Positions 29,177 through 64,000 of a stretch of 64,000 nucleotides of DNA are shown piece by piece. Origin of the DNA: Vulcanimicrobiota bacterium (lineage in GTDB: Bacteria; Vulcanimicrobiota; Vulcanimicrobiia; Vulcanimicrobiales; Vulcanimicrobiaceae); contig CAWGBN010000008.1 in assembly GCA_963820825.1 (NCBI GenBank), forward strand, positions 615,921 to 679,920, in the 5' to 3' direction. A program made the translations under genes and the position numbers. Under the pieces are notes generated by a model. It had not been told where the DNA came from. It saw nothing but the letters and a program-made list of their open reading frames with translations, and searched no databases. Positions within the stretch are counted from its first letter, which is position 1. Every line of letters starts with the position of its first letter.

Positions 29177-29187
29177 TGGTAGCGCCA
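29177..29187 (-). repeat. Possible degenerate tRNA 3'-end (att) copy
   Basis: TGGTAGCGCCA, 11-nt exact match to the CCA end of the repeat; intergenic and co-oriented. Confidence 0.4.
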
Positions 29188-29320
29188 GAACCAATCGCAT
29201 TCCTCGATCGCCATAACGCAAACGACTGCCAAAAGGAGCCCGGTATCGACGAAAGTCGCATTCATAGTTTCTTCGTCGATTATTCACGAGGCCTTCCTGG
29301 ATCCAGCGTACAGTGACGAC

Positions 29321-29689
29321 ATGAAAAGCCTTCTTTCGGCACTTACTGCCACCACGCTGGGTCTCTCGCTGAGCATCGCGGTCCCTATCTCCGGATCCGC
29401 CGCGCCGAGTCCCCAAGTCGTAACGGTTACAGCATCCTCTGAAGCAATGTTCAGCCCGTCGGAAATCACCGTTCACGCCGGACAACCCGTCGAATTGAAG
29501 CTCGTCGGGAAGAGCGGCGTGCATGGCATCGAGTCGAGCGCGCTCGGAATTCCGGCTACGACGATTACCCTCGGATCCACACAAACCGTGACGTTCACGC
29601 CTCCAAAGGTGGGTACGTATACGCTGCACTGCACGATTCCGTGTGGGCCGGATCACAGCAAGATGACGATTGTCGTTAAGGTCGTCTAG
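29321..29689 (+). CDS. Secreted cupredoxin-domain protein
   Basis: FSPSEITV, VHG, CTIPCGPDHSKM (CuA-like C-x3-C-x3-H-x2-M). Confidence 0.8.
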   Translation: MKSLLSALTATTLGLSLSIAVPISGSAAPSPQVVTVTASSEAMFSPSEITVHAGQPVELKLVGKSGVHGIESSALGIPATTITLGSTQTVTFTPPKVGTYTLHCTIPCGPDHSKMTIVVKVV

Positions 29690-29743
29690 CTACTCCGGCG
29701 GCTCAGCGATGGAGGCTGCGCGACTCGATACCCGACCTTAGGG

Positions 29744-30583
29744 TTAAGGTTTAGCAGCCGTCAGGACGAACGATGCAACGTGCAGCGAAGGTCCAGCATG
29801 AAATTGGAACCACAGCTTGTAGGTTCCAGGCTCGCTTACCGTCACGTGGAGAAGCATGTTCGGCGATACGATCGCTTTGTCGTTGGAGTACACCGCGGTG
29901 CTAGCAGATCCCATCGGCACTTCAGGGGCGACCGGGTGTAAGTGAACGTATGTAAGGTCGTCGGCGTCGAGAAAAACGGCATGTGCGAGCGCTCCGAGAT
30001 ACGGATGGACGTCCATGGCGGGCTTCCCGCCCTTCGCAACGCGCACGGCGATGTCGGCTGAGGAGCCGGCCTGCAATGACAAGCTCGAAAGCGTTACCGA
30101 ATATCCGCCGACCTGCGCGACCGCGTTGCGTTCGCTCAGATCTCTCGCCGTAGGCATCGCCTTCCCGGCTTGAAGATCGAAGCGAAACACTTGCTGCCCG
30201 ATGCCGGTCGGCCGACCGTCCGAATAGACGTGGTATAGCCCCGGGCGCGGCAGCGTTTGGTCGAGCAGGAAGTGGCCATTCGCCGAAAATGTAGGATGCA
30301 CGTGAAAGAACGTCTTGAAATCGTCGCTGACGATGATAACGTGCAGTAGCTTCGTCATGTCGAGGTCATAAGCTCGGATCGGAGCACCGCCATTCTTCGG
30401 AGTCATCCAGAAATCGAGCCTCCAAGCCTCGGGGCGGGGACCCGATGCGGTCTCGAGGTATCCGGCCGTGCGTGCCGGACCTCCCTGTAACGCAAATGTT
30501 CCATGGAGCACCGTTCCTGCATACGTCATCACCATGGTCATCAGCCAGATCCCGCCAGTCAGGGCTAACGCACGCATCGTCAC
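29744..30583 (-). CDS. Secreted His-rich putative heavy-metal-binding protein
   Basis: Two related modules: LLHVIIVSDDFKTFFHVHP and PYLGALAHAV...YVHLHP; PGTYKLWFQF. Confidence 0.65.
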   Translation of the reverse strand: MTMRALALTGGIWLMTMVMTYAGTVLHGTFALQGGPARTAGYLETASGPRPEAWRLDFWMTPKNGGAPIRAYDLDMTKLLHVIIVSDDFKTFFHVHPTFSANGHFLLDQTLPRPGLYHVYSDGRPTGIGQQVFRFDLQAGKAMPTARDLSERNAVAQVGGYSVTLSSLSLQAGSSADIAVRVAKGGKPAMDVHPYLGALAHAVFLDADDLTYVHLHPVAPEVPMGSASTAVYSNDKAIVSPNMLLHVTVSEPGTYKLWFQFHAGPSLHVASFVLTAAKP

Positions 30584-30658
30584 GGCTTGCTCCTTCTTAT
30601 CTCGCCGAAGTTGGCGTTACGCGGCGGCCTCATAAACCCTCCACAGCCCAGCCAATCC

Positions 30659-32038
30659 TCACACGGGTTGGAAGCGTGCCGTGAAATGCCGTAACGGCGG
30701 TGCTTGCGACATCATGCGGAGGCCGGCGATCCGGTCGCGCCCGGCGAAGACGTCGCCCATCACCTCGCACACGTAATCGATGTGACTCTGCGTGTAGACG
30801 CGGCGCGGAATGGCCAAGCGGACGAGTTCCATCGCCGCGACCGTTTCTTCGCCGGTCTGCGCGTCGGTCGATCCGAACATTACCGTTCCAATCTCGACGG
30901 CACGAATGCCGCCTTCCAAATAGAGTTCGGCTACCAACGCCTGCCCCGGAAACATCCGCCCCGGGATGTGCGGCAGCATTGCGGCAGCATCGATGTAGAT
31001 GGCGTGCCCTCCGGGGGGTTGCACGATCGGGACGCCGATCCGCGTGAGATGGTCGCCCAGATAGGCGGTCGATGCAATGCGATAATGCAGGTAGTCTTCG
31101 TGAAGCACCTCCTCGAGGCCGGTCGCCATCGCTTCAAGGTCGCGTCCCGCAAGGCCGCCGTATGTGGGAAAACCCTCGGTCAGAATCAGCAAGCGCGATT
31201 CTTGTTTTACAAGTGCCTCATCGTTGCACGCGAGGAAGCCTCCGATGTTAACCAGCCCATCCTTCTTTGCCGACATCGTGCACCCGTCGGCATAGGAGAA
31301 GAGCTCTCGCGCAACCTGGCGAGGCGTTTTTTCCGCGTAGCCCTCTTCTCGTTCGCGTATGAACCAGCTATTTTCCGCGAAACGACAGGCGTCGATATAG
31401 AGCGGAATGCGATGCCGGTTACAGACCGCACGGACCGCTCGGACGTTCGCCATTGAAACGGGCTGCCCGCCGCCGGAGTTGTTGGTGATCGTCAGCACGA
31501 CGAGCGGGACGCGATCGGCACCGGTTTGCGCGATTAATGCCTCCAGCGAGTCGACATCCATGTTCCCTTTGAACGGATGGATTGCAGAGGGAAGGCGCCC
31601 TTCGATGGTGGGAAGGTCAACCGCCTTCGCGCCGGTCTCTTCGATATTTGCGCGCGTCGTATCGAAGTGAGTATTGTTCGGCACGACGTCACCCGGTTTG
31701 CACATGCTGCTGAAGAGGATGCGCTCGGCCGCGCGGCCTTGGTGCGTCGGCAGAACGTAACGAAAGCCGAAGATGCTTTGGATAACGTCGAGCAAGCGAT
31801 AGTACGATCTTCCGCCGGCGTATGATTCGTCCCCGCGCATGATCGATGCCCATTGCTCGGCGCTCATCGCGCCGGTTCCGCTGTCGGTCAGCAGATCGAT
31901 CAACACGTGATCCGCATGCAGTAGAAATGGATTGTAAGCCGCCTCTTCGAGAAAATTCCGGCGCTGAGCGCGCGTCGTCATGCGGATCGGTTCGACGCAC
32001 TTGATACGGAAGGGTTCGATGATCGACCGATGGCCCAT
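30659..32038 (-). CDS. tnaA: Tryptophanase (beta-eliminating lyase)
   Basis: IDLLTDSGT, THQGRAAE, HFDTTR, MSAKKD, LRHFTARF; the Asp, Ala and His residues match tryptophanase rather than tyrosine phenol-lyase. Confidence 0.85.
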   Translation of the reverse strand: MGHRSIIEPFRIKCVEPIRMTTRAQRRNFLEEAAYNPFLLHADHVLIDLLTDSGTGAMSAEQWASIMRGDESYAGGRSYYRLLDVIQSIFGFRYVLPTHQGRAAERILFSSMCKPGDVVPNNTHFDTTRANIEETGAKAVDLPTIEGRLPSAIHPFKGNMDVDSLEALIAQTGADRVPLVVLTITNNSGGGQPVSMANVRAVRAVCNRHRIPLYIDACRFAENSWFIREREEGYAEKTPRQVARELFSYADGCTMSAKKDGLVNIGGFLACNDEALVKQESRLLILTEGFPTYGGLAGRDLEAMATGLEEVLHEDYLHYRIASTAYLGDHLTRIGVPIVQPPGGHAIYIDAAAMLPHIPGRMFPGQALVAELYLEGGIRAVEIGTVMFGSTDAQTGEETVAAMELVRLAIPRRVYTQSHIDYVCEVMGDVFAGRDRIAGLRMMSQAPPLRHFTARFQPV

Positions 32039-32297
32039 TCTGGGCGCGCTTCTCCGGAAGACGGGCCCCGCCTGTGCTTCGCCAAGGGACGCGTTCAAAG
32101 AGTGGGCTCTCCGTGGCGAGGGCTCCGAGGACGTGACGACAGTCGAGGCCCTCTGCGATCGAGGAGTCCCACGAGCAGCTCAGTGCCGAGCTCCCGAACG
32201 ACTCGACCAATCAGCAAGCTCTCGCATCTCGAGCCGCTTATCACCCATCCGTCACCTTAGACAACAATTCGTAAGGCGATGACCCTCATAGGTTTTT

Positions 32298-32323
32298 TCG
32301 TGGCGCCAACGGGAATCGAACCC
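32298..32323 (-). repeat. tRNA 3'-end (att-like) repeat, copy 1
   Basis: TCGTGGCGCCAACGGGAATCGAACCC; 2 mismatches to TGGTAGCGCCAACGGGAATCGAACCC. Confidence 0.85.
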
Positions 32324-32673
32324 CTCACGGAGTCCCCGGCCGCTCCCGTCGATTACTGGAAACTCCCTTACCGTCTTGTTGAAGGCCTCGATATTCCGAG
32401 CGTCTCTCTTGGCGACGATGGAGTGAACCTAAAGGCTGAATACGGTTGCACTATTCGATTTTGATCGACATCGAGCAGGTTTCTTGAAGTTCTGTTAAAT
32501 CGGGCGCCATTTTGGGCGCAAAGCCATGCTTTTGCGGTAAAGGCCAAGACATGACTCCAAGGCGGACCTTTCCCAAAGTAATCCTCGGATCAAGCGCTCG
32601 ATCCCCACCCGCGGGCGATGCTTGCTGTGCTTGGAAGTTTCTTCAAAAATTCGACCATTGATGTTGCGAACTG

Positions 32674-32682
32674 TGCTATACT
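32674..32682 (+). promoter_or_regulatory. Extended -10 promoter element
   Basis: TGcTATACT about 140 nt upstream of the ABM-like gene. Confidence 0.5.
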
Positions 32683-32819
32683 TTGTTTACAGCGACTCTA
32701 GGCGCCATTTCGAAAAGCTGCCCACCGTTACTGCCGCCCTCTAAGCGGTATCAAAATACGGGGCAGTTTCTTTTTTATGGTCGAATCAGTGAGACTGCTG
32801 CGAAATCTAAGGAGTGATT

Positions 32820-33140
32820 ATGTTTTCAAGAATCGTAACGATGCACCTAAAACCCAACAACGTCGTCCAACTTACGAAAACGGTCGAAGAGCAGGTGCTC
32901 CCGCTGCTTCGTAAACAGGACGGGTTTAAAGATGCGATCTTCTTCGTAAGCCCAGACGGAAGGGACGCGACTGCAATCAGTCTGTGGGATCGGAAAGAAA
33001 ATGCCGAGTCTTATAGTAGCAAAGCGTATCCGCAAGTGCTTCAGACACTAACGAGCCTCTATGATGGAAGCCCGCAAGTCAAGACGTACGACGTTTTCAG
33101 TTCGACTTTCCACAAGATTGCCGCTCAAGCCGCAGTCTAA
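32820..33140 (+). CDS. Antibiotic biosynthesis monooxygenase-like (dimeric alpha-beta barrel) protein
   Basis: SD AAGGAG; VLPLLRKQDGF, AISLWDRKENAESY. Confidence 0.7.
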   Translation: MFSRIVTMHLKPNNVVQLTKTVEEQVLPLLRKQDGFKDAIFFVSPDGRDATAISLWDRKENAESYSSKAYPQVLQTLTSLYDGSPQVKTYDVFSSTFHKIAAQAAV

Positions 33141-33335
33141 AAGCAACCCGTCTTTCCATCCGGTAAAGAGCGGCCACCGATGGGCCGCTCTCCGTTGCTT
33201 GGAGCAGCGGACTGAAGTCCTTGAGTCGACCCTAAGTGGGCCCGGCGGTTACCGGAGCGAACGGCGGCCCTCATTTACGCGCTAATTTTGACAGAGCAAA
33301 GGCTAGGCGGCGGATACGGCTAAAGGGGACCCCTC

Positions 33336-33773
33336 ATGAAGGCTTCGCCGACGTTGATCGTGGCGATCTGCACTGGCGCCGTCACCGCACTTTCTCTCGC
33401 AGGGCCGAGCGATCGGCTCGCCCTCGCTGAATCGAACGGTCCCGCGATTTATCAGAATCGTTGCGCCATCTGTCACGAGCGATCGGGGGAAGGCGTACCC
33501 GGCGCGTTTCCACCGTTGGCTCAGAACCCGCATGTTACCACAAGCGACCCCAGTGCGGCGATCGTCGCCGTCCTCAATGGGATGCTCGTCGCCATTACCG
33601 TGCACGGGCACCGGTACACCGGCGGAATGCCGGGCTGGAGAGATTTCCTCTCAGACGCCGATGTGGCCGCCGTCGTAACGTACATTCGCACGTCCTGGGG
33701 GAATCGCGCTTCGACGGTGACCGCGTCTCAGGTCGCGCGAATTCGGGGAAACGCGTCGACGCTCACACCGTAA
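33336..33773 (+). CDS. Cytochrome c (copy 1)
   Basis: CAICH, GEGVPGAFPPLA, GMPGW, YIRTSWGN. Confidence 0.85.
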   Translation: MKASPTLIVAICTGAVTALSLAGPSDRLALAESNGPAIYQNRCAICHERSGEGVPGAFPPLAQNPHVTTSDPSAAIVAVLNGMLVAITVHGHRYTGGMPGWRDFLSDADVAAVVTYIRTSWGNRASTVTASQVARIRGNASTLTP

Positions 33774-34306
33774 TGGCGACAAGACCCACGATGAAAGTTC
33801 CGTTCTCGGCTCCTCGTAGTGCCGCGCGCTGCGCGCTACTGCTCGCATCGATGGTATTCGCGGCATCGGCCGGCGCGCTTGCGGCCGACAAGGCTAGCGG
33901 GAGGGTCAGTTTCAAGACTTACTCGACCGCGGTCAAATACGGGTGGCTCGTTCGTGGTCCAGACGAAATGGATCCGAACAAGGCCGTTCTTCGCATTTAC
34001 TTGTCGAGCGTCGACATCGGCGCCAAGATCAGGGCGTGTAAAACCTTGTCTTGTGCAGACGGCGCGCTAGACGATGGGGCCATGATCGATTTCGGCGACG
34101 CAACGCATCTTGGCTACGCACTTAGGTTTAACGGCGACCTGGTCCAATATTCCGGCGGTACCAACGCGCAGGCATTCACACTTTCGACGAACCAGCCCGA
34201 CCATCTCGCAGGCAAGCTGCACGTCGACGACAGCGCCGTTGGCGGTGGTAAGGTCGACGCAGAATTCGACCTGACACTGACACGTACGTTCGAGACTATC
34301 CTTTAG
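33773..34306 (+). CDS. Hypothetical secreted protein
   Basis: ATG overlaps the cytochrome c stop (TAATG); signal peptide ending ALA. Confidence 0.55.
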   Translation: MATRPTMKVPFSAPRSAARCALLLASMVFAASAGALAADKASGRVSFKTYSTAVKYGWLVRGPDEMDPNKAVLRIYLSSVDIGAKIRACKTLSCADGALDDGAMIDFGDATHLGYALRFNGDLVQYSGGTNAQAFTLSTNQPDHLAGKLHVDDSAVGGGKVDAEFDLTLTRTFETIL

Positions 34307-34381
34307 CTCCGTCAAACGCGCGAGTCGCCTCGACGAACCGAGTGAGTCGAATATAATTCCACACTACCGACGACAGCAAAG

Positions 34382-34403
34382 AAGGCCCGTCGTTACGAGC
34401 CTT
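34382..34403 (-). terminator. Terminator-like hairpin just 3' of the att copy's CCA position
   Basis: Minus strand AAGGCTCGT-AACG-ACGGGCCTT followed by CTTT. Confidence 0.55.
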
Positions 34404-34406
34404 GTG

Positions 34407-34435
34407 TAGTAGCGCCAACGAGAATCGAACCCGCG
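34407..34435 (-). repeat. tRNA 3'-end (att-like) repeat, copy 2
   Basis: TAGTAGCGCCAACGAGAATCGAACCCGCG; 2 mismatches to the consensus. Confidence 0.85.
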
Positions 34436-34599
34436 AATCGGAGTCCCGGCCGCTCCCGTCTAGTACACGATACTCCTTTCATGTATGGGGTCTCGTGTTT
34501 TCGCGTCCCTTCTTAGTCCCGTCGAGCCCCGGCGAGTTTCCCTTCGGGTCGTTACTGCGGTCGTCGCGAATGACTGACGCCCTAGCGCGGGTGACCGCG

Positions 34600-35823
34600 C
34601 TACGGCTTTATTGCGAAAACGACACCAGCGCCAGTAAGGCTTTGCGAACCGTACCCTCCGCCCTCGGACGTAGTGCCATACAGGAGACTGTCGACGGCAA
34701 TCAGACCGGCATCCGGATGTGCCGGCGTCCTGTCGTCCCTGGCGCGAGGGAACACGTGAAGAATGGTCCGCGCACCCGACGGCGTGACTCTGAACACGCT
34801 GCCGCCTCGCTGATTCGCACCGGCGAACTGACCGTAGGTCGTTCCGTATAGAAGGCCTTTATAAACGAGCAGGGCCGATGCCGGATACTTACTGTCGCGA
34901 GTGAAGCGGCAGAGGACGTGCTCACTGCCGGAAGTCGTGATCGCAAAAACGGATCCGTTCCCAAGCCCCCGGTGATGCGCGCCGCCATAGAAGGTCGTGC
35001 CGTACAGGGCCCCGTTCAGTGCGACCACGCCGCCCTGCGGCTCGAAACCGTCTCGCGCGTTCTTCCCAAAACTATGCAGGATGCTTTCTTTGCCCGATGC
35101 GTTTACTTTGAAAACCGCTCCCGCGGTGTAGGCGCCGCTTGTTCGGGTCGAGCCATAGAACCAACCATGAAGAAATGCAAGATTACCATTCGGTTGGCAA
35201 CCGTCCGGGATGCCCTTGAAACTATAGATGACCTGGAAGTCGCCCGACGTCCCGATCGAGAAGAACGCCCCACAATGGTGCGCGCCTCCTGAGTCCGTCG
35301 TTCCGTAGAGCCGTCCCTTGACGTAAATTAGCGGCGAGTCAGGATGCGCGCCGTCGCGGCCAACGAAGCGGTACATGACGCGCTCTTGCCCCGTCGTAGT
35401 GATCTTAAAAACAGTCCCGCAGCCGCTGTGGCGAAAACATTGGGAACCGCCGCCATCGTTCGTGGTTCCATAGAGCTCACCCTTAACGGCCGTCAAACTT
35501 GTGGTTGGCGTCGCGCCGTCGCGTCTGCCCTCGAAACTGTAGAGTACGCTCTCCGCTCCGGAGCCGTCGATTTGATAGACCGTGCCCGCCCCACTCGTGC
35601 CGCCGCCGGCTGTCGTGCCGTAGAGGATACCATTGAGATCACTTAGCGCCGCCTCAGGGTCCGCACCGTCGCCGTTACCTTTGAAAGCGTAGATCGTGTG
35701 GTAGCCGCCTCGGGCCTCAGGGGTGGTAACCGAATCGAGTTGCGAGCCGCTCGTAGGCAACACTGGCGTGCGGCTCGAGCAGCTCACGAGGATAACACAA
35801 AGCAGCAAAAAGCTTACACGCAT
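34600..35823 (-). CDS. GloVer-type tandem-repeat (choice-of-anchor) lipoprotein
   Basis: Lipobox LVSCSS; about 7 repeats of LYGTT..GG...G.VF.I...G.E..L..F. Confidence 0.8.
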   Translation of the reverse strand: MRVSFLLLCVILVSCSSRTPVLPTSGSQLDSVTTPEARGGYHTIYAFKGNGDGADPEAALSDLNGILYGTTAGGGTSGAGTVYQIDGSGAESVLYSFEGRRDGATPTTSLTAVKGELYGTTNDGGGSQCFRHSGCGTVFKITTTGQERVMYRFVGRDGAHPDSPLIYVKGRLYGTTDSGGAHHCGAFFSIGTSGDFQVIYSFKGIPDGCQPNGNLAFLHGWFYGSTRTSGAYTAGAVFKVNASGKESILHSFGKNARDGFEPQGGVVALNGALYGTTFYGGAHHRGLGNGSVFAITTSGSEHVLCRFTRDSKYPASALLVYKGLLYGTTYGQFAGANQRGGSVFRVTPSGARTILHVFPRARDDRTPAHPDAGLIAVDSLLYGTTSEGGGYGSQSLTGAGVVFAIKP

Positions 35824-35907
35824 GATCGTAGAATAGGACGAAAGGCATGATAGCGCAAGCGCATTGCGTAGGGCGCCGCCGCGGCACTGGAAACACCAAG
35901 TGGTAGC

Positions 35908-35978
35908 AGCCGTCGAGCGCATCTCCGAACGCCTGCGAACGGCTGCTCGACCTCCGGTTAAGGTTTGGCCGCCGTAAG
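35908..35978 (+). pseudogene. Remnant: internal piece and 3' end of the PNPOx-family gene joined to the 3' end of the metal-binding gene
   Basis: 35908-35942 identical to 42159-42193; 35946-35978 matches 61316-61349. Confidence 0.7.
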
Positions 35979-36060
35979 CCGTGGCGGCGACGTCTTCACA
36001 AATAGTTCTTCCCAATGCCCTAGACTGTGGGCTTGAGGAACTCGAAAGGATGATATCGAT

Positions 36061-36552
36061 ATGGGCACGCTGAGAGAGCATATTGACGTGAGATGTCCTC
36101 GCTACTATCTAATTCATCACGCGGAACGCTACTTTACCGTCCACCGCTCCGGCCAGACACCAGGGACATTCAGCTTAGCAGTCGACATGTCCAAAGTCGG
36201 CCTTCCCGGAAAGGTACAAGCACGCCACGACGTGCGGATGCGATACGAAACTTCGAAAGACGCCAACGATCAGCCCATAGTCGCGCTGACGTGGGATCCG
36301 GACGACCGTTTCGTTCCGAGGTTTACCGGTGCGCTATCCGGCGAAATGTTGGAGGACGGAAGAGCACGCTTGACTCTCGAGGGTACATACGATGCACCTT
36401 TCGGACCGGTAGGAGCCGTGTTCGACGCAGTTCTGGGCCACCGGATCGCCGCGGCGACGGCCGACGCCTTCCTGCAAGACGTCAAACAATTCATCGAGTC
36501 GGACTATCAGGTCGCGGCGGCGACGTCGCTTGCCGAATCTCCGAAAGACTGA
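36061..36552 (+). CDS. Hypothetical protein (SRPBCC/START-like fold suspected)
   Basis: LTLEGTYDAPFGPVGAVFDAVLGHRIAAATA pattern; duplicated in part at 42320. Confidence 0.65.
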   Translation: MGTLREHIDVRCPRYYLIHHAERYFTVHRSGQTPGTFSLAVDMSKVGLPGKVQARHDVRMRYETSKDANDQPIVALTWDPDDRFVPRFTGALSGEMLEDGRARLTLEGTYDAPFGPVGAVFDAVLGHRIAAATADAFLQDVKQFIESDYQVAAATSLAESPKD

Positions 36553-36577: not shown

Positions 36578-36606
36578 TGGTAGCGCCAACGGGAATCGAA
36601 CCCGCG
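36578..36606 (-). repeat. tRNA 3'-end (att-like) repeat, copy 3 (perfect)
   Basis: Minus strand CGCGGGTTCGATTCCCGTTGGCGCTACCA: T-arm, acceptor 3' strand and CCA. Confidence 0.9.
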
Positions 36607-36726
36607 TCCTTCGACAAGCCTCAGGATGACACGCGGCTATCGCTGGGGGAACTCGTCGTAGTCAGGGTCAAGAGCCAAACATGGAACCAGCACGCTTTGC
36701 CCTAGACGACGTTAGGGAGTTGCACC

Positions 36727-36900
36727 GTGATTCGACTCGGTGATCACGTCATCGTGAAAGGCGAGGACGAGGAAGCGATCGTTACCGCCGTGCATCCCGA
36801 CTCACAGGTCGAAATCGAGTTCCTTCATGCGTCGGAGGGAAGACCGCGGCGCAGGCGCTACGCCGCCGAAGCGCTCGAGAAAGTTTTGCGGACCTCCTAA
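36727..36900 (+). CDS. Small hypothetical protein (57 aa, below the ORF-track cutoff)
   Basis: SD AGGGAG then GTG; MIRLGDHVIVKGEDEEAIVTAVHPDSQVEIEF..., an SH3/KOW-like pattern. Confidence 0.55.
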   Translation: MIRLGDHVIVKGEDEEAIVTAVHPDSQVEIEFLHASEGRPRRRRYAAEALEKVLRTS

Positions 36901-36908
36901 TCCGCCTA

Positions 36909-37355
36909 CTACATGCTTTGCTTGACTGGAATGTTCGTCAGTGGCCCGTCTCCGCCGACCTGCTCGATGGTAACGCCCTGTGCGACCGACCAGTGATGGA
37001 CGCCTGCTGGGACTGCAATGAACGAACCCGCCGGTAGCACCCGCGCGTTAGACTTGTCGATGGTATTACCCGTCCCGAACAAAAGCGTTCCTTGGATCAC
37101 GGTGATATATTCGGCGTGCGAATGGTAATGCGGCTTGTTCGTGTAGCCGTCGGGCATCTTAACGCGAATGATTGCGGTGCCGGATGAGCTCGGATTGCCA
37201 ACCATCACCGCATTCCAAGAGCCCTTCGCAGGACCGGTGGCGGCCACCCAGTGGAGGCTATCGGACGTAAAAAAGATCGGAGCTGACTGCATCGCGGCGA
37301 GCGTAGCGCCGGCGGTCACGAGCAGCCCCAAAACGAGCCACGAGAAGAGTTTCAT
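36909..37355 (-). CDS. Secreted cupin-domain protein
   Basis: PHYHSHAEYITVIQG and AGSFIAVPAGVHH cupin motifs. Confidence 0.8.
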   Translation of the reverse strand: MKLFSWLVLGLLVTAGATLAAMQSAPIFFTSDSLHWVAATGPAKGSWNAVMVGNPSSSGTAIIRVKMPDGYTNKPHYHSHAEYITVIQGTLLFGTGNTIDKSNARVLPAGSFIAVPAGVHHWSVAQGVTIEQVGGDGPLTNIPVKQSM

Positions 37356-37551
37356 AGACTATCCTTTCATCGAAAACCTATAGAAATGCAACGGGATTGC
37401 TTGCCCCCTTCGCTACTACGAAGACGGGGGCCCTTTGCGAAACCGATGTTCGTTAGAACGCCCCGATGCTAAGCGCAGCTTTGCCGCTCCGCCCCATTTC
37501 CCGAAGGTTCTCGACGGGTTAGGACCATACAAGAGTCGGATGAAAAGGCTT

Positions 37552-37758
37552 TTAACAGCTTGAATCGACGACGGGTCCGAGGCATCTCCCGAGAATGCAG
37601 CGGCGTCGATCCCTCGAGTTTTCAACCGCGGCAACGCCGGCGGCAAGGCGATCTTCGCTGCGCCCGATCACGGAGACCGCAAAGCCCTCAGCCCCGAACT
37701 TCCCGGCCACGGCCGTTGCCGTGCCTGGGCCGACGACCATAACGATGTTCTTTACCAT
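37552..37758 (-). pseudogene. Truncated SDR oxidoreductase N-terminus
   Basis: IVMVVGPGTATAVAGKFGAEGFAVSVIGRS; the continuation LKTRGIDAAAFSGDASDPSSI is in another frame and then ends. Confidence 0.65.
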
Positions 37759-41411: not shown

Positions 41412-41584
41412 GACTGCTTCAAGTTACATCTTTGCCGCCCCGCCCCCGCCTCGCGGCCGCGCGCGCGTAGAGCCATTCACCCTTCGCGATACCGCGCTCG
41501 TGGCCGGTTTTGATGCGGCACGGCAACCGAATGGCAACCGCATCGCCGCGAGCACCAAAAAGGCCCGCAAATACCGGCCGTTGA

Positions 41585-41791
41585 TGGTAGCGCCAACGGG
41601 AATCGAACCTTCTCTCTTTCGGAAACTGACGAAACTGAGGCAACCGGCGAACACGAATTCGCGCTGCCCGTCTTCCAGGTGCTTCGGTTTCGGCTATTTC
41701 TCCTATTGCTCGTCACCCATCCGTCCCAGAGGGCACCATGGCCGCGTAACCCGCCTGCCGTCCCCAAGAAATCCCGGCGCCCGTTCCGCCG
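41585..41791 (-). repeat. tRNA 3'-end repeat copy 4 (41585-41609) plus about 180-bp type-B arm
   Basis: TGGTAGCGCCAACGGGAATCGAACC; the following sequence recurs at 61096-61281. Confidence 0.9.
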
Positions 41792-48193: not shown

Positions 48194-48463
48194 AAGTCCG
48201 GACCTTTCTTCGGCGAATTTCTGCCGTGGTTACCGAGGAGGGGCTCGTCATGTTTCGCCGCTCGGCGTCAGGACGCCCCGCCGGTTCGCGGAGCCCAGCG
48301 GCGGCGACGGGCAGAGCACCGGCGGCAGTAGCGGCGGGAACCGGTCAGATCGTCATCTCTTGGTAGGCGCCAGTCAGAACGATAATGCGCTCTCATCCTT
48401 TTCGAAGTTGGTTCTAATCATTACCGATGAGAGCTTCTGCCGCGACGATGCTAGAAATAAAGG

Positions 48464-52836: not shown

Positions 52837-52919
52837 ACCCGTGACTCGGGGGTCCCGGCCGCTCCCGTTGACTACCCGAGAGTCCTTTCCTGTATGGGTT
52901 TTCGCGTTTTCGAGTCCCT
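52837..52919. repeat. Type-A arm copy lacking the tRNA core
   Basis: ACCCGTGACTCGGGGGTCCCGGCCGCTCCCGT...TCCTTTCCTGTATGGGTTTTCGCGTTTTCGAGTCCCT aligns to 34429-34510. Confidence 0.75.
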
Positions 52920-56598: not shown

Positions 56599-57528
56599 CT
56601 ACCAGGAGATGACGACTAAGCCGGCAGCACTTCCGCCTTGCTGGTCGGTGACGCTTTTTGCATTCGACTCCGTGTACGATGAACCGCCGCCGCCGCCACC
56701 GCTAGCAGAGCTATAAACAAACTCCCCATAGCGCGCCAGGACGCCGCCACCGCCGCCGCCGCCGCCGTAGTAGCCGCCGCCCCCGCCACCACCGGGAATG
56801 CCGCCCAGGTTACCGCAACCGCGACCACCCGTGCCACCGATGCCGAGCGTCCCGCTTTGGCCGTCGGCAAAGCCCTCGCGACAAAGGGAGTCGTCTCCGT
56901 CGCCGCCGCTGCCGCCTGCGCTCTGCGCCCCGCCACCTCCGCCAGAGCCGCCACAACCGCCCGCGGCGCCGTTGCCGCCGATCAGATCGCCTCCGGCTCC
57001 TCCGGCTCCGCCCTGGCAATTGTTACTGGGGGCCCCGGCACCGCCACCTCCGCCAGCCACGATCACACGGTGGGCGAATGCATCACCGCCTTCGCGCACG
57101 TCGGAGGCCCCGCCACCACCATAACCTCGCCTGACGCCGCTGTTGCCGCCTCCGTTAAAGCCGCCTGAACTGCCCGAGGGGTTGCCGCCAACGAATACCG
57201 CGAGTGACTCTCCCGGGGTGACGGGAATCGTGGCCTTGACGTAACCGCCGCCCAGGCCACTCCCGGAACTTCCGCCATAGGCCTTAACCGTGACGTGCGT
57301 CACGCCGGTGGGCACTGTGAAGTTCTGCTGCGCGCCGGTGTAGTTAAAGGTCGTGCTATAGTGATGGCGCGGCGCGGCTACCGCCGCGACCGCCTTCGTG
57401 GCTTGAGGAACGCCGATCGGTGACGACGCTGCAGAAATCGGTGTCTGCCCTGATCCGCCGCACGCTGCGAGAGTTGCTGCAGCAGTACCAATGCTTAAAG
57501 CATGACAGCAAGAATTTAAAGCCTTCAT
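56599..57528 (-). CDS. Glycine-rich domain lipoprotein
   Basis: LAACGG lipobox; FNYTGAQQNFTVPTGV, GGGGASDVR, IVAGGGGG, GGGGSSY. Confidence 0.8.
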   Translation of the reverse strand: MKALNSCCHALSIGTAAATLAACGGSGQTPISAASSPIGVPQATKAVAAVAAPRHHYSTTFNYTGAQQNFTVPTGVTHVTVKAYGGSSGSGLGGGYVKATIPVTPGESLAVFVGGNPSGSSGGFNGGGNSGVRRGYGGGGASDVREGGDAFAHRVIVAGGGGGAGAPSNNCQGGAGGAGGDLIGGNGAAGGCGGSGGGGGAQSAGGSGGDGDDSLCREGFADGQSGTLGIGGTGGRGCGNLGGIPGGGGGGGYYGGGGGGGGVLARYGEFVYSSASGGGGGGSSYTESNAKSVTDQQGGSAAGLVVISW

Positions 57529-57643
57529 TTTTAAGTCGCTCCTTAAACCAAAAGCGTAAACGGCTAGAGCTACCGGCCGCAGGCACTACGAATGGATCTA
57601 AACGGCACGCGCCAATCGTAGCAGAATCATTTTCGCTCACGCG

Positions 57644-57659
57644 TCCGTAAAAATACGGA
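57644..57659. promoter_or_regulatory. Inverted repeat, candidate LuxR-family operator
   Basis: TCCGTA-AAAA-TACGGA between the LuxR-STAND gene and the lipoprotein cluster. Confidence 0.5.
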
Positions 57660-57676
57660 GGACGTGCGTCAAGAGC

Positions 57677-60137
57677 TCAGACTTGGAGGGCTTCGGCGAT
57701 AGCCTCGTCTTCGCACCAGCTACCTCCGCTAGCCGTCAGCACTTGGTAGCGGTTCGCGCCGAGCCCCGCCTTTAAGGCTTGCACGATTTCGTGGTGCTCT
57801 CGCCGCTCGGCCCCCTCACGCCGATATTTGGTCCTCGCGAGCGTCGCATCCACGTACCCCAATAATTGAGCTGCGCGAACTTGATGCTCGCGTAAAAATA
57901 CCCTATCGCGTGCGGGTTGCAGGGCCGTAGTCGCCGCAAGGTGTTGGAGTGTTATCGCGGTGTAAACTTCGTTCTGTGATTCAAGCGTAAGCGTTAGCGC
58001 TTCACGCGCATGAATGCGAGCCTCTTCAAATCGTGCGGTAGCTATAAGGTATGCGGTCAGGTTCATAAGAGCTTCTGCTAGACTGGATGAGTGTTCCATC
58101 CCGCGCAGGACGGTTAGCGCCCGTTGGCCCAGCTCGAGCGCTTCTTCCAGTTCATTGCTTGCATAAGCGATTTCAGCGAGGTTCTGGGCCGCAATGGACG
58201 CTCCATGGTCATGTCCGCCTAATTCGAACTCGACCAGCGCCTCGCGGAGGTTAGTGCGAGCCTCCGCGATGTTGCCACGGTCAAACTGTACGCGGGCGAT
58301 TCCATTGAGCGCCAGTCCGGCTAGCCGATGGTGGTTGTAATGTCTAGCCACCGAGAGTACCTCTTGCATGTGCGTCTCGGCTTCGGCAAAGCGACGGAGA
58401 TTGCACAAGGCGTGGGCGTACATGGCACGCGCCCTAACGGCCTTCGTGTGATCGGCCACGTGCTCGTACAGCTTCCACGCCCGTTCGGCTTGAACTAGCG
58501 CTTCTTCTCGGTGCCACCCGACACTCACGGCAGCTCGCGCCAGCTCGAGGCGTGCGCGCACCGTTGCTGGAGCACGATGGCCCAGCGTTGTTAGGGCGCT
58601 TTCTATCCAGCGTGAACCCTCTACTTCGCGACCGTAAGAAAACCAGAGATGCTCAATCGAACCGGCGATCGTAGCTCCCAAAAGCATGTCGCCGTCGTTG
58701 CCGAAAGCCCATTGCAGCGCCGCTCGCCAGTTCGCAAACTCCGGCCGAGCCTGCGCAGAATAGAGGGCGTCCGGCATGGTCGGGCACGCCTCATCGAGGC
58801 GCTGAGCCAAGTCCGTCATTGCTTGCGCGTGCGCATACGCAACGGTAGCGGATTCCCCCGCAGCCTGTAGCTTCTCCAACCCGAAGTGACGCGTCGACTC
58901 GGCAAGCGCGTAACGCGATTCGTTGCGACCCTGTGTCCGTTGCACCAGGGACTTCTCGGTCAGCGACCCAAGCACGCTGAGCACTTCGGTTCTCCGGATG
59001 CCATCTCGGCAAACCGCAGCCGCGAGATCGAGCGTGAAGCCTCCGACAAAAACGGCGAGCCGCCTAAGGAGCGTCCGTTCGTTGGGCGACAAGAGATCGT
59101 AACTCCAATCCAGCAACGCGCGCATCGTCTGGTGACGCGCAGGCGCAGCCCGACCAACCGCGCGCGAAATTAAGCACGATTTCCCCGATGTTCTCGGACA
59201 GTGCGTCGATCGAAAACTCAGTGACTCGCGCGGCAGCCAGCTCGATTGCCAACGGAATTCCATCTAAATTCCGGCATAGCTCGCCGAGCGCGGGCGCATT
59301 GTCGTCGGTGAGCGTAAATCGCGGCTGAGCGGCGCAGGCTCGGTCCACGAAGAGCGCTACCGACCCGGAGGTCATCGCAACATCTGCCGTGAGGCCCGAT
59401 ACCTCGGCTGGAAACGCCAGTGACGGCACGCGATGCACGGCCTCGTCGGCGATGCCCAGCCGCTGCCGCGATGTCGCAAGGATCCTGACGTCGGGGCAAG
59501 CCTGAACGATTTTATCGGCTAGGGCAGCGGCCGCTTTCGCGACATGTTCGCAGTTGTCGAAGATCAGCAGCAGAAGTTTCGGCTTGAGCGAGGTAACGAT
59601 CGATTCGCTGAGCGGACAATCGTGCCGTTCGCGAACGCCGATCGCCCACGCGACCGCACGTTGAACGGAGCCCAGATCGGAGATCGTAGAGAAATCGCAA
59701 AACCACACGCCGCTTCTCAAGCGATCAGCGAGTTTGGCGCAGGCCTCGACCGCGAGGCGCGTTTTGCCAACACCTCCGGCGCCTGTAAGCGTAACTAGGC
59801 GATGTTGTTCGAGCAAATGTAAAACGTGCGCGAGATCCGCTTCACGTCCGAGCAGCGGCGCGGTGAAAGCTGGTAGGTTATGCCGTGAGCGTTCGGCCGA
59901 ATGAACCGGCGCGGACGCCGGCGTTGCGGCTAGCAAACCCCGCTCTCGCGCTTCCGCAATGGCGCTTGTGCGGGTACGGGCGTTAAGCTTGCCGAGGACG
60001 TGCGCAACGTGAGTCTCGACCGTACGGGCGCCTAGCCCCAAGCGCGCAGCGATATCTTTATTGGTCAGACCAATCGCCATCAGCTCGAGAACGTCGTGCT
60101 CTCGCGCGGTGAGGGGACTGTGGACCCGCTCCTGCAT
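57677..60137 (-). CDS. LuxR-HTH + NB-ARC/AAA + TPR regulator, +1 frameshift near 59183
   Basis: LTAREHDVL..GLTNKDIA..TVETHV; GAGGVGKT, IFDNCEH, LDGIPLAIELAA; continues as RHQTMRALLDWSYDLL in the next frame. Confidence 0.85.
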
Positions 60138-60184
60138 AGCGCTTTTTGAGCCTCAGGGCGACTTGGCGCTTTGCCGCTTGGGCT

Positions 60185-60336
60185 TCGACTGACGAAGCTG
60201 AAATTCCGGTCTATCGACGCCAATGGCGACGACGTGCGCCTTCGACCGTATCGCACGCAAGGCGAGGATTTCGACGACGCGTTTACATGACCTGCGGCGC
60301 ACCGGCCCCGACGCGCGATCCGGCCGCAGACGATAG
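60185..60336 (+). pseudogene. Tyrosine recombinase remnant (HxxR region)
   Basis: 60223-60336 reads MATTCAFDRIARKARISTTRLHDLRRT...; not in the ORF track. Confidence 0.65.
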
Positions 60337-60574
60337 CGGCAAGGAGCGGATCGCACCGGAATAAGCCGTGAGGGCGAGGCAACCCAGAAATACGCAAATG
60401 CGCATCGTTAGAACCCCCAAGGAACCGCAGAGGACGTAGGCATACTACTCTGCTGGAGTAGGGACCTCCAGCAGTCTGGTGGCCGCCCGTGTTGGCGTCC
60501 CCGCAAAACGAGGCTCCCCTGGCTGGGCGCCGACGTCCATCTCGGAGCCCCGACCTAAATACGTTATGCTGCCG

Positions 60575-60722
60575 CTCCAATCGCCACCTGGAAACGCACT
60601 TGAGCCGCGCAAGGGAGGGCGCAAAGGCCAGCATTCGATTCGGGTCAATAAGTAGTACCGCATCTGCTCTTTGTGGAGAAATGGCGATGCGTAGGAAGTT
60701 GAAATTACTGATTAATCACTAA
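60575..60722 (+). pseudogene. higB: HigB (RelE-like) toxin pseudogene
   Basis: LQSPPGNALEPRKGGRKGQHSIRVNK*YRICSLWRNGDA*EVEITD..H: two in-frame TAG stops (60653, 60692) and an indel near the end; directly upstream of higA. Confidence 0.8.
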
Positions 60723-60733
60723 GGGATCTCAAA

Positions 60734-61045
60734 ATGGGCAAGAGTCAGCGCATTCAGCCAACGCATCCTGGCGAAATCGTTCTCGATGAGTACGCGGGGC
60801 CTTATTCGCTGAGGGCAAACGCCCTAGCAACCGATTTGGGTCCTCCGGCGACGCGTAAAGGAAACATTATTCATCAGCGCCGTGGCATTACGGCGGAGAC
60901 CGCGATTGCGCTCGCTGAGTATTTCAAAACATCCGCTGCGTTCTGGCTTGGCATTCAGATGCAATACGACAAGGAAATAGCCGAGGACGAAATCGGTCAA
61001 TGGGTTCGATCGCGCGTTCGTCGTCGGGAGCTAGTCGAAAGATAG
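60734..61045 (+). CDS. higA: HigA family antitoxin (HTH)
   Basis: PTHPGEIV, RRGITAETAIALAEYFKTSAAFWLGIQMQYD. Confidence 0.85.
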   Translation: MGKSQRIQPTHPGEIVLDEYAGPYSLRANALATDLGPPATRKGNIIHQRRGITAETAIALAEYFKTSAAFWLGIQMQYDKEIAEDEIGQWVRSRVRRRELVER

Positions 61046-61073
61046 CGGCTGCGCGTGCGAACGTGAAGTTCTA

Positions 61074-61281
61074 TAGCGCCAACGGGAATCGAACCTTTTC
61101 TCATTCAGAAACTGGGGAAACTGAGGCAACCGGCGAGCACAAATCCGCCGTTGCGCGGTGTCCAAACCGCTTCGGTTTCCCCTATTTCTCCTATTGCTCG
61201 TCACCCATCCGTCACCCAGAGGTACCATGGCCGCGTAACCCGCCTGCCGTCCCCGGGGAAATTCAGGCGTCTGTTCCGCCG
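61074..61281 (-). repeat. tRNA 3'-end repeat copy 5 (61074-61095) plus type-B arm
   Basis: TAGCGCCAACGGGAATCGAACC; the arm matches 41610-41791. Confidence 0.9.
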
Positions 61282-61288
61282 CGCCCAA

Positions 61289-61419
61289 CCACATTACGAA
61301 GAAGTACGGCCGCTACTCGGACCTCCGATTAAGGTTTGGCCGCCGTAAGGACGAACGATGCAACGTGCAGCAACGCTCCGGCATGAAATTGGAACCACCA
61401 CTTGTACGCTCCAGGCTCG
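61289..61419. pseudogene. 3' ends of the PNPOx-family gene (+) and the metal-binding gene (-), joined at TTAA
   Basis: 61289-61332 matches 42276-42318; 61329-61419 matches 29744-29834. Confidence 0.8.
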
Positions 61420-61994
61420 AACCGAGGTACTGGGCTAGGCGAATTCTTGCCGCGTTGGCGCTCGCAGCGATCCTCTGGTTTGCAGTCGGCTGGCTGGACG
61501 CGCAAACCGCCTGTGCCCACGACCCGCGTTTTTCCTGCTCGCCTCGCGACTCTCAGCATGCGGTTGTGATTCCCGACCCGCAAAAATCTTGGGCATATTA
61601 CGGACGCCTCGCTCGCGGGCAACGGGATATCTATCGTGTCGTCTTACGTGACACCCTCGCGCTGCCGCTGAGCGTCTCCGTCGAAACGGCCGACACCGTC
61701 AACCCCGGACGACCTCGCGTGGTCGTCAGCGACTCCTTCCACCGCGCCATCGCGAGAGTGCCGTTCGATCGAGTGCAAGCTTTCTATGAGCCGTTCTCGC
61801 GAATCTCGTATCTTACGACGCCGAATCGGGAGCTAAGCCTTCCCCCCGGAACGTACTCGATCACCGTCACGATGGATCGAGCGACTCTACCGCAGCGTTA
61901 CGTCCTGGCCGTTGGCGCGTCGGAGCGCTTCACGGTCGGCGAAATCCCGTACGTCATCGGCGCCGTCCACCGAATCCGCGTTCGGGGGTACTGA
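61383..61994 (+). CDS. Hypothetical secreted protein (start uncertain)
   Basis: Hydrophobic signal ending ACA-H; FYEPFS and YVLAVGASERF; stop overlaps the next ATG. Confidence 0.6.
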   Translation: MKLEPPLVRSRLEPRYWARRILAALALAAILWFAVGWLDAQTACAHDPRFSCSPRDSQHAVVIPDPQKSWAYYGRLARGQRDIYRVVLRDTLALPLSVSVETADTVNPGRPRVVVSDSFHRAIARVPFDRVQAFYEPFSRISYLTTPNRELSLPPGTYSITVTMDRATLPQRYVLAVGASERFTVGEIPYVIGAVHRIRVRGY

Positions 61995-63437
61995 TGCCGG
62001 CGACGCTGCGCGTACTCGTGACCGGGGCGACCGGCTACATCGGCGGACGACTCGTTCCGCTCTTATACGACCACGGATATACAGTGCGCTGCTTTGCGCG
62101 CGCGGCGCATCGTTTGCGCGGCCGATTCCCATCCGACGTCGAGATCGCCGAAGGTACCATTCACGACCCTGTCGCGTTGAGGACGGCGCTATCGGGCTGC
62201 GACGTTGCCTATTATCTCGTGCACTCGATGAGTTCGACGAAAGAGTTCGCCACGGCGGACCGCGAAGGGGCGCGGAAGTTCGGCGAAGCAGCGAGGGACG
62301 CCGGACTTCGACTCATCATTTACCTCGGCGGCCTCGGAAGCGACCGCGAAACGTTGTCGACGCATTTACGCAGCCGCCACGAGGTCGGCAGCGTGTTACG
62401 AGAAAGCGGAGTCCCGGTCATCGAGTTTCGCGCCGCGCAAATAATCGGAAGTGGCTCGATCAGCTTCGAAATGATTCGTTACCTAACGGAACGCCTTCCG
62501 GTGATGATCGCGCCGCGATGGGTGCAGACGCGCTGCCAGCCGATCGGCGTTCGCGATGTGTTGTCGTACCTTGTCGGGGCCTTGTCGTTGCCGTTCGAAA
62601 ACTGCATCTATGAGATCGGCGGACCTACGGTGCTAACGTATCGTGAAATGATGTTGCGTTACGCGGCCGTGCGCGGCTTGCGACGCTACATTCTAGTGGT
62701 TCCGTTCTTTACCCCCAAACTGTCGTCGTACTGGGTGCATCTCATCACTCCGATACCGGCAACGCTGGCGCAGCCATTAATTTCAGGGGCTTTACAATGA
62801 GGTCGTGGCCCACGACGAGCGCGCCGCTCGCGATTTTCCATCGATTCGTCCACAATCGTTCGACGATGCGCTCGAACTCGCGCTCGATCGGTCGCGGAGC
62901 GCCGATCGCGAGTCAACGTGGTTTGACGCATTTGCGGCTCAAACACCCAAGGGCACTTTCACCGGTCTGGAAGAGGGGATGCTCATCGATCGGCGCGAGC
63001 GCACGGTCAACGCGAGCGCGGGGCGCGCGGCCGAGGTTTTCTCGTCGCTCGGCGGGGCGCGCGGCTGGCTCGCCGCCGACTTTCTCTGGCGAGCGCGCGG
63101 TTGGATCGACCGGGCCGTCGGTGGCACCGGACTGCGGCGAGGGCGCCGCTCGATGAAGAATCTTCGTGTCGGCGATGCGGTCGACTTCTGGCGGGTCGAG
63201 GAGTATCGCCCTGGCGGAATGCTGCGCCTGCGCGCGGAGATGGTGCTTCCCGGTCGAGCGTGGCTGCAGTTTGAGGCCGAACCGCTTTCGGCGGCGAGAA
63301 GCAGGCTCGTGCAGACCGCGTTCTTCGAACCGCGCGGGGTGTGGGGGTATATCTATTGGTACGGGATCATGCCATTTCACGGCATCGTTTTCGGCCGCAT
63401 GATCGAGCAAGTCGTTCGAGCTGCGGAGTCGGGCTGA
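61994..63437 (+). CDS. NAD(P)H-binding SDR + DUF2867 protein (YbjT-like), +1 frameshift at GGGG 62786-62789
   Basis: VTGATGYIGG, YYLVHSM, HLRSRHEVG; removing one G gives ISGLYNEVVAHD and joins VGDAVDFWRV...AEMVLPGRAWL. Confidence 0.85.
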
Positions 63438-63544
63438 CGCGCCCAACGCCGCGCTGACTTCATTCTGTAACGTGGGCGTTTCTTCGTAGCGCCCGGATAC
63501 GAGGATCCATCTCGGCAAGGCGCCGCTGGATCCAGTTTTTCGGC

Positions 63545-63720
63545 GTGGACTTGGCGCAGAGCGGCGTTTGCTTTCGCTCCATCACCCATAGCATTCCATG
63601 CAAGGGCGAGTTCGAGCGCTCCGAGTTGGCCGGATCACGTGGCCGTCCAGCGGATTCTGGGGCATTCTACGGCGGCAACTACGCTCGACGTTTACGGACA
63701 CGACCCCAGGGCACCGCCAT
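63545..63720 (+). pseudogene. Tyrosine recombinase C-terminal remnant
   Basis: 63639-63701 VAVQRILGHSTAATTLDVYGH, the conserved LGH...T..Y catalytic Tyr motif. Confidence 0.75.
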
Positions 63721-63809
63721 GCGATCAAGGTGCTGGACGGCTGCTCCGACGCAAAGCGTCCAGCGAGTGCTTTTGTAGCAGGGGCTGTAGCAAAACACCG
63801 TGGCGTGAA

Positions 63810-63833
63810 AGACGCTCGTCAAGTCGAGCGTCT
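63810..63833 (-). terminator. Hairpin immediately 3' of the CCA of att copy 6
   Basis: Minus strand AGACGCTCG-ACTTGA-CGAGCGTCT followed by TTC. Confidence 0.6.
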
Positions 63834-63835
63834 CT

Positions 63836-63925
63836 TGGTAGCGCCAACGGGAATCGAACTGAGCATAGCGGTCCTGGCCGTTCCGCCTAGCTACTGAAGA
63901 GGTCGATGGAATAAGGGTTTTCGCG
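63836..63925 (-). repeat. tRNA 3'-end repeat copy 6 (63836-63859) plus divergent type-A-like arm
   Basis: TGGTAGCGCCAACGGGAATCGAAC then GTCCTGGCCGTTCC...ATAAGGGTTTTCGCG. Confidence 0.85.
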
Positions 63926-64000
63926 ATGCCTCACTCCTGACCGTTCCGGCCAGATTCTACCCTTTTCTGACCCGTCTGTTACACGGGCGTTACACGGGGT

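Follow-up and report, generated by a model that had tools for sequence, protein, structure and literature searches.

A 64,000-nucleotide (nt) stretch of the genome of a Vulcanimicrobiota bacterium, analysed here at its full length and referred to as the window (G000:C8:615921-679920), carries from position 29177 to its right end groups of accessory genes separated by short, co-oriented repeats that correspond to the 3' end of a transfer RNA (tRNA) gene. This part of the window is probably the older, distal portion of a tandem accretion array at a tRNA-Glu(TTC) gene, from which the integrases have since been deleted. The assembly that holds it, G000 (the genomes compared with it are likewise designated by G-numbers), comprises 2.98 Mb in nine contigs and is 85% complete.

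In the proposed mechanism, small integrative elements would have inserted one by one into a tRNA-Glu(TTC) gene on the minus strand, past the end of the contig, the point of entry being its 3' end (T-arm and acceptor strand); each element would have been inserted by its own tyrosine integrase. Every entry would have rebuilt the tRNA gene and pushed the earlier elements leftward, so that a displaced tRNA 3' fragment stands at the head of each. This one site would serve several integrase lineages, each with its own attachment (att) arms, namely a left arm of ~170 nt ending in paired 6–7-mers and a right arm of 50–100 nt that runs from the integrase stop codon to the core. Later deletions would have removed the integrases and, in places, the cores, leaving accessory cargo between att scars; this order of events is the one we infer for the locus.

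The core of the repeat, the 21-mer TAGCGCCAACGGGAATCGAAC, was found six times in the window with no more than one mismatch, always on the + strand: at 32301 and 34410 with one mismatch each, and at 36581, 41588, 61074 and 63839 without any. None of 100 dinucleotide-preserving shuffles of the window contained a match, and a gapless 27-mer scan of both strands (at least 19 of 27 positions matching) returned the same six copies and no others in the window; 50 shuffles averaged 0.16 matches and never gave more than one. Across the whole assembly there are six forward and no reverse copies, and every copy is inside the window. The copies fall between genes supported by Pfam or NCBIfam; an open reading frame (ORF) at 41329-42318 overlaps the copy at 41588, with its Pfam domain beginning beyond the copy. 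A preliminary description of this DNA, made from the sequence alone, had listed six intergenic, co-oriented repeats, and all six stand, its coordinates being 3 lower only because a TGG was included, whilst the genome-wide count places them at one locus only. Mismatches occur only in the two leftmost copies, which fits insertion at the tRNA end, with older units farther off.

The reverse complement of the repeat reads as a T-arm, an acceptor 3' strand, a discriminator A and CCA, in line with the T-arm, acceptor strand and CCA of that description. The copies match the tRNA up to a point within, or immediately past, the T-loop or T-stem, and this endpoint varies from copy to copy; the description had placed it just past the T-loop. 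ARAGORN identified an intact 75-nt tRNA-Glu(TTC) gene exactly at the match in 14 of 29 loci fetched from relatives, which confirms the earlier guess of a tRNA-Glu target, and the intact tRNA is located at the right end of the array in G014, G018, G022, G002, G080, G081, G082 and G084. In the window itself there was no tRNA or transfer-messenger RNA (tmRNA) call by ARAGORN and no Rfam match at the gathering score. Contig C8, with a length of 679,920 nt, stops 141 nt past the last core (63839), which is presumably why the target tRNA is missing from the assembly; the body of the last unit and the tRNA gene would both lie beyond the contig end. ARAGORN called 47 tRNAs in G000, tRNA-Glu(CTC) among them, and no tmRNA gene in this 85%-complete assembly. 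A tmRNA target was ruled out, as the 3:70 pair of the acceptor stem is C-G and not G-U and relatives show tRNA-Glu; an archaeal origin, hinted at by an A1-U72-like end and the lack of a tmRNA call, was ruled out by the initiator tRNA of G000, which has the bacterial C1-A72 end.

The repeat is widespread among close relatives. A 25-mer search of 41 genomes (up to two mismatches) gave matches in 25, G000 included: 20 of the 24 other genomes of the genus, four of five from a sister family and none of 11 from a third family. The 18-nt core (up to one mismatch) is present in 84 of 91 genomes of the genus, at up to 17 copies per genome. When the core with its commonest flank was scanned against one genome per species (185,579 species), 62 stretches were obtained, 61 of them in metagenome-assembled genomes (MAGs) labelled Eremiobacterota/Vulcanimicrobiota, some as Candidatus Cybelea or Candidatus Tumulicola, and one in a Terriglobia MAG. 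This last (L123) contains one exact core with a type-A arm (see below) outside the Eremiobacterota, and could reflect either inter-phylum transfer or a binning error.

Arrays were assembled from 13 genomes and oriented as in the window, giving 84 closed units, the counts of which come from related genomes and are not independent. In these arrays the tRNA fragments all lie to the left of the intact tRNA in the same orientation, and full-length integrases (Pfam PF00589) read rightward and stop 50–140 nt before a core, as seen in G022, G018, G014, G101, G104, G084 and G096. This is the geometry expected if newcomers enter the intact tRNA and displace older elements, and it upholds the earlier proposal that serial entries by tyrosine-integrase elements left the att scars. 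The integrases sit inside units, several being possible per array; a full-length integrase is present in 13 closed units and a relic in 10 more. By class of left arm, full gene, relic and no trace are distributed as 5, 1 and 0 among six D units, 3, 0 and 2 among five E units, 1, 6 and 37 among 44 A units, 0, 2 and 7 among nine units headed by a repetitive extragenic palindromic (REP)-like module, 0, 1 and 2 among three B units, and 4, 0 and 13 among the 17 others.

The flanks to the right of the cores define these classes. The commonest, type A, is ~170–180 nt long and 80–90% identical between copies although the cargo behind it is unrelated, and a variant has the REP-like module between core and arm; the remaining flanks are of types B, D and E, plus several single forms. 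A common design is apparent, in which the arm ends ~140–165 nt from the core in two 6–7-mers placed 11 nt apart. The doubled word is CCGTTAGA in type A, GTGACA in type E and GTGCCAC in type D, where six of six left arms have it at +139/+150 or +140/+151. Elements of types D, E and H repeat the arm word in the short stretch that separates the integrase stop codon from the following core. To judge from the sequence, this layout is that of lambda-like attP arms with arm-type sites, and the paired words are predicted to be the arm-type binding sites of the integrases.

The H-type integrase (reference G018:C2:14293-15450, 386 amino acids (aa)) has a right arm carrying CCGTTAGAcggCCGTTAGA, the same pair as ends the type-A left arm. 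The protein is 97–99% identical over its full length in seven other species and 99% identical over residues 1–375 in an eighth, with further copies at 89% (one) and 97–98% (two, partial or split), and it adjoins tRNA-Glu or a core in G018, G017, G008, G006, G074, G098 and G075. Flanks are 80–93% identical between genomes that share this integrase. Its link to the type-A left arm is drawn from the common repeat pair alone, because no complete H-type element was obtained.

Three places in the window retain traces of integrases where intact elements carry theirs. The relic at 60217-60303 matches the integrase of G101C4 in 26 of 29 residues (tblastn E 2.6e-10) and that of G014:C4 in 19 of 29 (E 7e-7); it is oriented like the intact integrases and lies 770 nt to the left of the core at 61074. 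The relic at 63597-63701 aligns with equivalent positions of two tRNA-Glu-side integrases (tblastn E 0.004 and 0.02), a weak match when taken alone; in place and strand it corresponds to the ends of intact integrases. A 107-nt stretch that takes in the right arm at 41504-41587 and the core behind it shares 89.7% identity with the rightmost part of G101C4 44916-53375, an integrase-bearing element in which the integrase match ends 51 nt before the core; the remainder of the integrase at the 41504 arm is deleted. The two relics and this arm stump, found where intact elements carry an integrase, point to serial integration followed by decay.

An intact integrase is absent from the window, as had been noted from the letters alone. 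Pfam searches of the 101 ORFs of at least 100 aa in 25–64 kb returned no PF00589 domain and no recombinase or transposase, and no PF00589 gene occurs on contig C8, the five of the assembly all being on other contigs. None of these five exceeds 45% identity to any of the three tRNA-Glu-side integrases with which they were compared, and the closest homologue of the H-type integrase in G000 (45% identical) is situated at another tRNA.

The att copies themselves also resemble those of integrase-bearing elements. The last copy has a complete left arm in which GTTACA occurs at 63978 and 63989 (+139 and +150 from the core), the same geometry as in D-type arms, and the type-B arm of the copy at 41588 is 85% identical to the arm at 61076 over ~200 nt. 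Three further, decayed copies had been suspected. That at 52837 was recovered by an nhmmer profile of the right flank (E 2e-19) as an arm without a core, and blocks common to the window and G101/G096 end at 52836 and 52839; a deletion has taken the core together with the end of the unit to its left. The copy at 48361 is supported by homology, since its flank (48386-48876) corresponds to DNA that follows a good core at G022:C1:1135039. For 29177, the place is plausible, as synteny pairs the neighbouring hydrolase and DoxX genes on the left (27606-29141) with those that lie to the left of the first G022 core, but the match itself is of 12 nt and the claim is unproven.

Comparison with relatives shows that cargo differences break at the repeats, which the preliminary description had put forward as a check. 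BLAST links 29–64 kb of the window to the fetched arrays by 17 blocks of at least 400 nt: 13 have an edge no more than 60 nt from an att boundary, one runs across a boundary, and the other three show neither feature. Single units of G101 and G096 contain parts of window units 1, 2 and 4 together, in a changed order. A cytochrome c segment is present twice in the window in separate units (~33281-33749 and ~42625-43090, 95% identical) and, with the reordered pieces, indicates that the arrays are also reshuffled by deletion and duplication.

The same habit is seen at other tRNA genes of G000, which we count as support for serial integration. Five co-oriented 3' fragments lie within 22 kb at tRNA-Asn(GTT) (C2:329578-351790), four within 31 kb at the selenocysteine tRNA, tRNA-SeC (G000:C6:467130-498007), with an integrase beside the tRNA, and two at tRNA-Ala(CGC) (G000:C6:691205-700616). 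Repeat pairs with the same 11-nt spacing close the Asn and SeC arms as well, formed by GGCTGCAC and GTGTAGT respectively.

Several observations weigh against serial integration and decay as the full account. Neither the tRNA-Glu(TTC) gene (by ARAGORN) nor an integrase for its site was found in the G000 assembly, which is 85% complete and broken at the array. In Pfam searches at E≤1, no integrase family matched the 55 stop-to-stop pieces taken from the left sides of the six cores, the relics are defined by short tblastn matches, one of them weak, and at the junctions at 32301, 34410, 36581 and 41588 there is no integrase-coding relic beyond ~33 nt within 41504-41587. Losses are also unevenly spread, with 37 of 44 type-A units lacking any trace of an integrase and one having a full gene, against a full gene in 8 of 11 D/E units; this skew is not obviously predicted by plain random decay and is not fully explained. 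A whole H-type element headed by a type-A left arm was not recovered, since G098 lacks a core in the 51 kb upstream and in G075 and G018 the contig comes to an end. Finally, the only three clusters of whole-unit homologues among the closed units (K1, K2 and K3) are integrase-less and 96.5–99.8% identical between species, higher than the tRNA-side flank (92.4% between G002 and G082 over 2.2 kb), which suggests that such units still move. They may be carried by the H-type integrase, or exchanged via homologous recombination through the core-plus-arm modules.

These last points are those that would favour an active cassette platform, integron-like or cis-mobilizable, in which integrase-less units are non-autonomous and use an integrase supplied in trans or by a neighbour, with the H type as candidate; we regard this as unlikely. 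In addition to the skew (seen across the 13 genomes, with a median unit size of 4.3 kb) and the interspecies identity, this reading would account for a type-A left arm conserved over ~170 nt in front of unrelated cargo, for units that keep both arms (such as G101C4 42926-44916, of only 2 kb), for the repeats shared by the type-A left arm and the H-type right arm, and for a nearly identical H-type integrase found across species beside tRNA-Glu or a core. A specific form of it, that the tRNA-Glu(TTC) locus is a genus-wide cassette exchange where type-A units are moved by the H-type integrase via the CCGTTAGA pair, is similarly doubtful; if true, it would be a tRNA-anchored functional analogue of the integron and would explain the high identity of units between species. 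However, two both-armed type-A units without an integrase gene (G014C1 22024-27583 and G022a 46300-51236) retain the degenerate end of an integrase immediately ahead of the right arm (GHGNLGIAYNRHQ, where the H type has LGHSDISITYDRYI; the last ~14 recognisable codons), read by eye from three-frame translations and under the tblastn cut-off, which identifies these units as products of deletion. An integrase or a relic is present in seven of the 44 type-A units, most type-A units have no recognisable matching right arm, and the type-A arms of the window are truncated (76 and ~105 nt) or coreless. Cargo reads both ways, the nearest G000 homologue of the H-type integrase is distant and at a different tRNA, and spread between species is equally possible by homologous recombination. 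The suggestion of an integron-like capture platform with an integrase in trans, made in the preliminary description, is thus unsupported for the window, where two integrase relics and an arm stump occupy the places of integrases and the arms are the att arms of integrase-bearing elements in relatives.

Growth of the array mainly by unequal homologous recombination or duplication between a few att copies would be in keeping with the duplicates found inside arrays, both the cytochrome c segment of the window and whole stretches elsewhere (G018 units 18121 and 6113, 87% identical over 1.5 kb; G104 units 59161 and 79625, 99% identical over 3.4 kb), and with the reordered pieces of window units 1, 2 and 4 in G101 and G096. 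It is very improbable as the main process, given that the cargo of most units is unrelated, with only the three whole-unit clusters, and that the copies carry at least five arm types and vary in the endpoint of tRNA identity. Least credible of all is that the repeats represent, instead of att scars, a short repeat element of tRNA origin or a gene for a small structured RNA: the core does retain the whole T-arm hairpin and its ~170-nt flank is conserved and non-coding, but the arm holds no strand able to pair with the acceptor 3' strand, Rfam and ARAGORN made no call in the window, the copies keep to one locus and one orientation, and the arrays of relatives end in a real tRNA with integrases beside the copies.

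Serial integration followed by decay is thus the reading under which the features of the window are listed below, together with the content of the units.

Att sites, arms, integrase relics and units of the array (positions in the window)
Feature	Position	Strand	Details
Possible oldest decayed att remnant TGGTAGCGCCAG	29177..29188	+	12-nt match only; left edge of the array; unproven
Unit 0	right of 29177		cupredoxin, 279-aa ORF, tryptophanase-family lyase
Att copy 1	32298..32374	+	core 22/24, CCA end mutated; truncated type-A arm of 76 nt; nhmmer E 8e-13, model positions 3-79
Unit 1	32301-34410		cytochrome c and an ORF
Att copy 2	34407..34539	+	core 23/24; type-A arm of ~105 nt; nhmmer E 1e-32
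Unit 2	34410-36581		GloVer-repeat protein of 493 aa, 163-aa ORF
Att copy 3	36578..37558	+	perfect core, REP-like module TCCTTCGACAAGCCTCAGGATGACA, 1-kb conserved left-end module with cupin gene 36912-37355 (-)
Unit 3	36581-41588		two YceI genes, TetR, hydrolase, DUF347
F-type right (integrase-proximal) arm	41504..41587	+	GGCAACC at 41522 and 41533; ~33 nt homologous to integrase 3' end
Att copy 4	41585..41791	+	core, identity ends at GAACC; type-B arm with GAAACTG at 41622 and 41631, GGCAACC at 41639
Composite stretch from att copy 4	41588-61074		19.5 kb
Decayed att copy TGGTAGGCGCCA	48361..48372	+	T-arm part lost
Type-A arm without core	52837..52919	+	nhmmer E 2e-19, model positions 24-105; core reduced to its final CCCG
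Tyrosine integrase relic, F type	60217..60303	+	..TRLHDLRRT, HxLRH box
Att copy 5	61071..61281	+	core and type-B arm
Unit 5	61074-63839		209-aa ORF, NmrA-like reductase, DUF2867
Integrase C-terminus relic	63597..63701	+	..ILGHSTAATTLDVYGH / ..LGHSTAATTLDVYGH, LGH...Y box; 135-240 nt left of the next core
Att copy 6	63836..64000	+	core, identity ends at GAAC; complete left arm; nhmmer E 3.5e-10

Pfam-supported genes are found on both strands, within and between units, and the four units bounded by cores on both sides (32301-34410, 34410-36581, 36581-41588 and 61074-63839) contain no recombinase or transfer domain. NCBIfam and PADLOC indicate ordinary accessory cargo; a defence island was considered and rejected, PADLOC having given only two weak domain-level matches among 12 large cargo proteins. 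A small gene of unknown family is present in two diverged copies (27240-27588 and 48386-48876), and its homologue in G022 directly follows a core. Regulators of the STAND-type NTPase/TPR kind are encoded at 49156-51482 and 57680-60137, one with an adenylate-cyclase-domain ORF just upstream and the other made up of overlapping LuxR-NTPase and TPR ORFs, an overlap that may represent a frameshift. In G018, two adjacent array units (L037/L038; G018:C1:2674000-2686000) contain seven serine-hydrolase ORFs (Pfam Beta-lactamase).

The 1-kb module at 36567-37558, consisting of the core, the REP-like word and the cupin gene, is 94–97% identical in at least ten other species of the genus, where it always starts at a core and often occurs in two copies; one further copy, 90% identical, lies at G000:C4:21761-22597, 170 nt from a tRNA-SeC fragment. 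Other genes, such as those at 44.5–48.3 kb, are 77–86% identical between species, and by comparison the cupin module looks to have spread recently. The ~24-nt word TCCTTCGACAAGCTCAGGATGACA (36605-36632 in the window) is situated between core and type-A arm in some units, and is doubled once, in G022; it appears to resemble a widespread REP-like palindromic repeat.

The locus shows how the Eremiobacterota (= Vulcanimicrobiota), an uncultured soil phylum, builds its flexible genome, with one tRNA gene serving as the landing site of several integrase lineages and, after decay of the integrases, tens of kb of accessory genes (a tryptophanase-family lyase, cytochromes c, redox enzymes, regulators and surface-repeat proteins) left in place. 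The att arms are distinct enough to be used as markers: the five lineage-specific paired repeats share the same geometry, so that island borders in these genomes could be mapped automatically, and predictions about the arm bound by each integrase would follow from them. Where tRNA 3' fragments lie co-oriented and no integrase accompanies them, this is not by itself the sign of a new capture system.

A full-text literature search (Eremiobacter*, integrase, tRNA) found no description of this locus in Eremiobacterota. A close published parallel is provided by the ssrA islands of Dehalococcoides, which are arranged in tandem, bounded by ~20-bp ssrA repeats and inserted at the T-loop (McMurdie et al. 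2011, PMC3146451). The two systems share tandem islands downstream of a tRNA-like gene, direct repeats of its 3' end, T-loop insertion, accessory cargo, extra conserved sequence beside the repeat and many islands without an integration module. The Dehalococcoides target is tmRNA and the enzyme a CcrB-like serine recombinase within a six-gene module, whereas here the target is tRNA-Glu(TTC), used by several tyrosine-recombinase lineages, the arms of ~170 nt bear paired repeats, and the host phylum is Eremiobacterota (PMC3146451). The module-less Dehalococcoides islands are there proposed to be cis-mobilizable elements, so that mobilisation of integrase-less units, in trans or in cis, has already been proposed in print for arrays of this kind (PMC3146451).

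Successive entries have left the genomic islands of Prochlorococcus with tycheposons, broken integrases and incomplete tRNAs (Hackl et al., bioRxiv 10.1101/2020.12.28.424599). Tyrosine recombinases, entry at a tRNA, older elements pushed into the island, remnants and niche-adaptive cargo are common to both. Tycheposons, compared here by their published description, are defined by a recombinase clade of their own and by replication modules, and number ~1–2 elements per genome in Prochlorococcus, compared with the up to 17 core copies per genome reported above (bioRxiv 10.1101/2020.12.28.424599).

As in integrons, small units of accessory genes are separated by recombination sites. Unlike integrons, the array has no IntI-type integrase beside an attI site, its genes lie in both orientations, its sites read as tRNA-derived direct repeats with asymmetric lambda-like arms rather than as attC hairpins, and the units carry relics of their own integrases. 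For the cis-mobilizable elements (CIMEs) related to ICESt1/ICESt3 of Streptococcus, mobilisation in cis has reportedly been demonstrated by experiment (by Pavlovic and colleagues in 2004); their arrays are said to be short and the target to be the 3' end of fda. The units described here likewise are att-flanked, lack recombination and transfer genes and stand in tandem with integrase-bearing elements, a likeness that is seen here at the level of sequence. The process of tandem accretion is known, and the Eremiobacterota locus is a new instance of it, with an unusually clear att-arm architecture.

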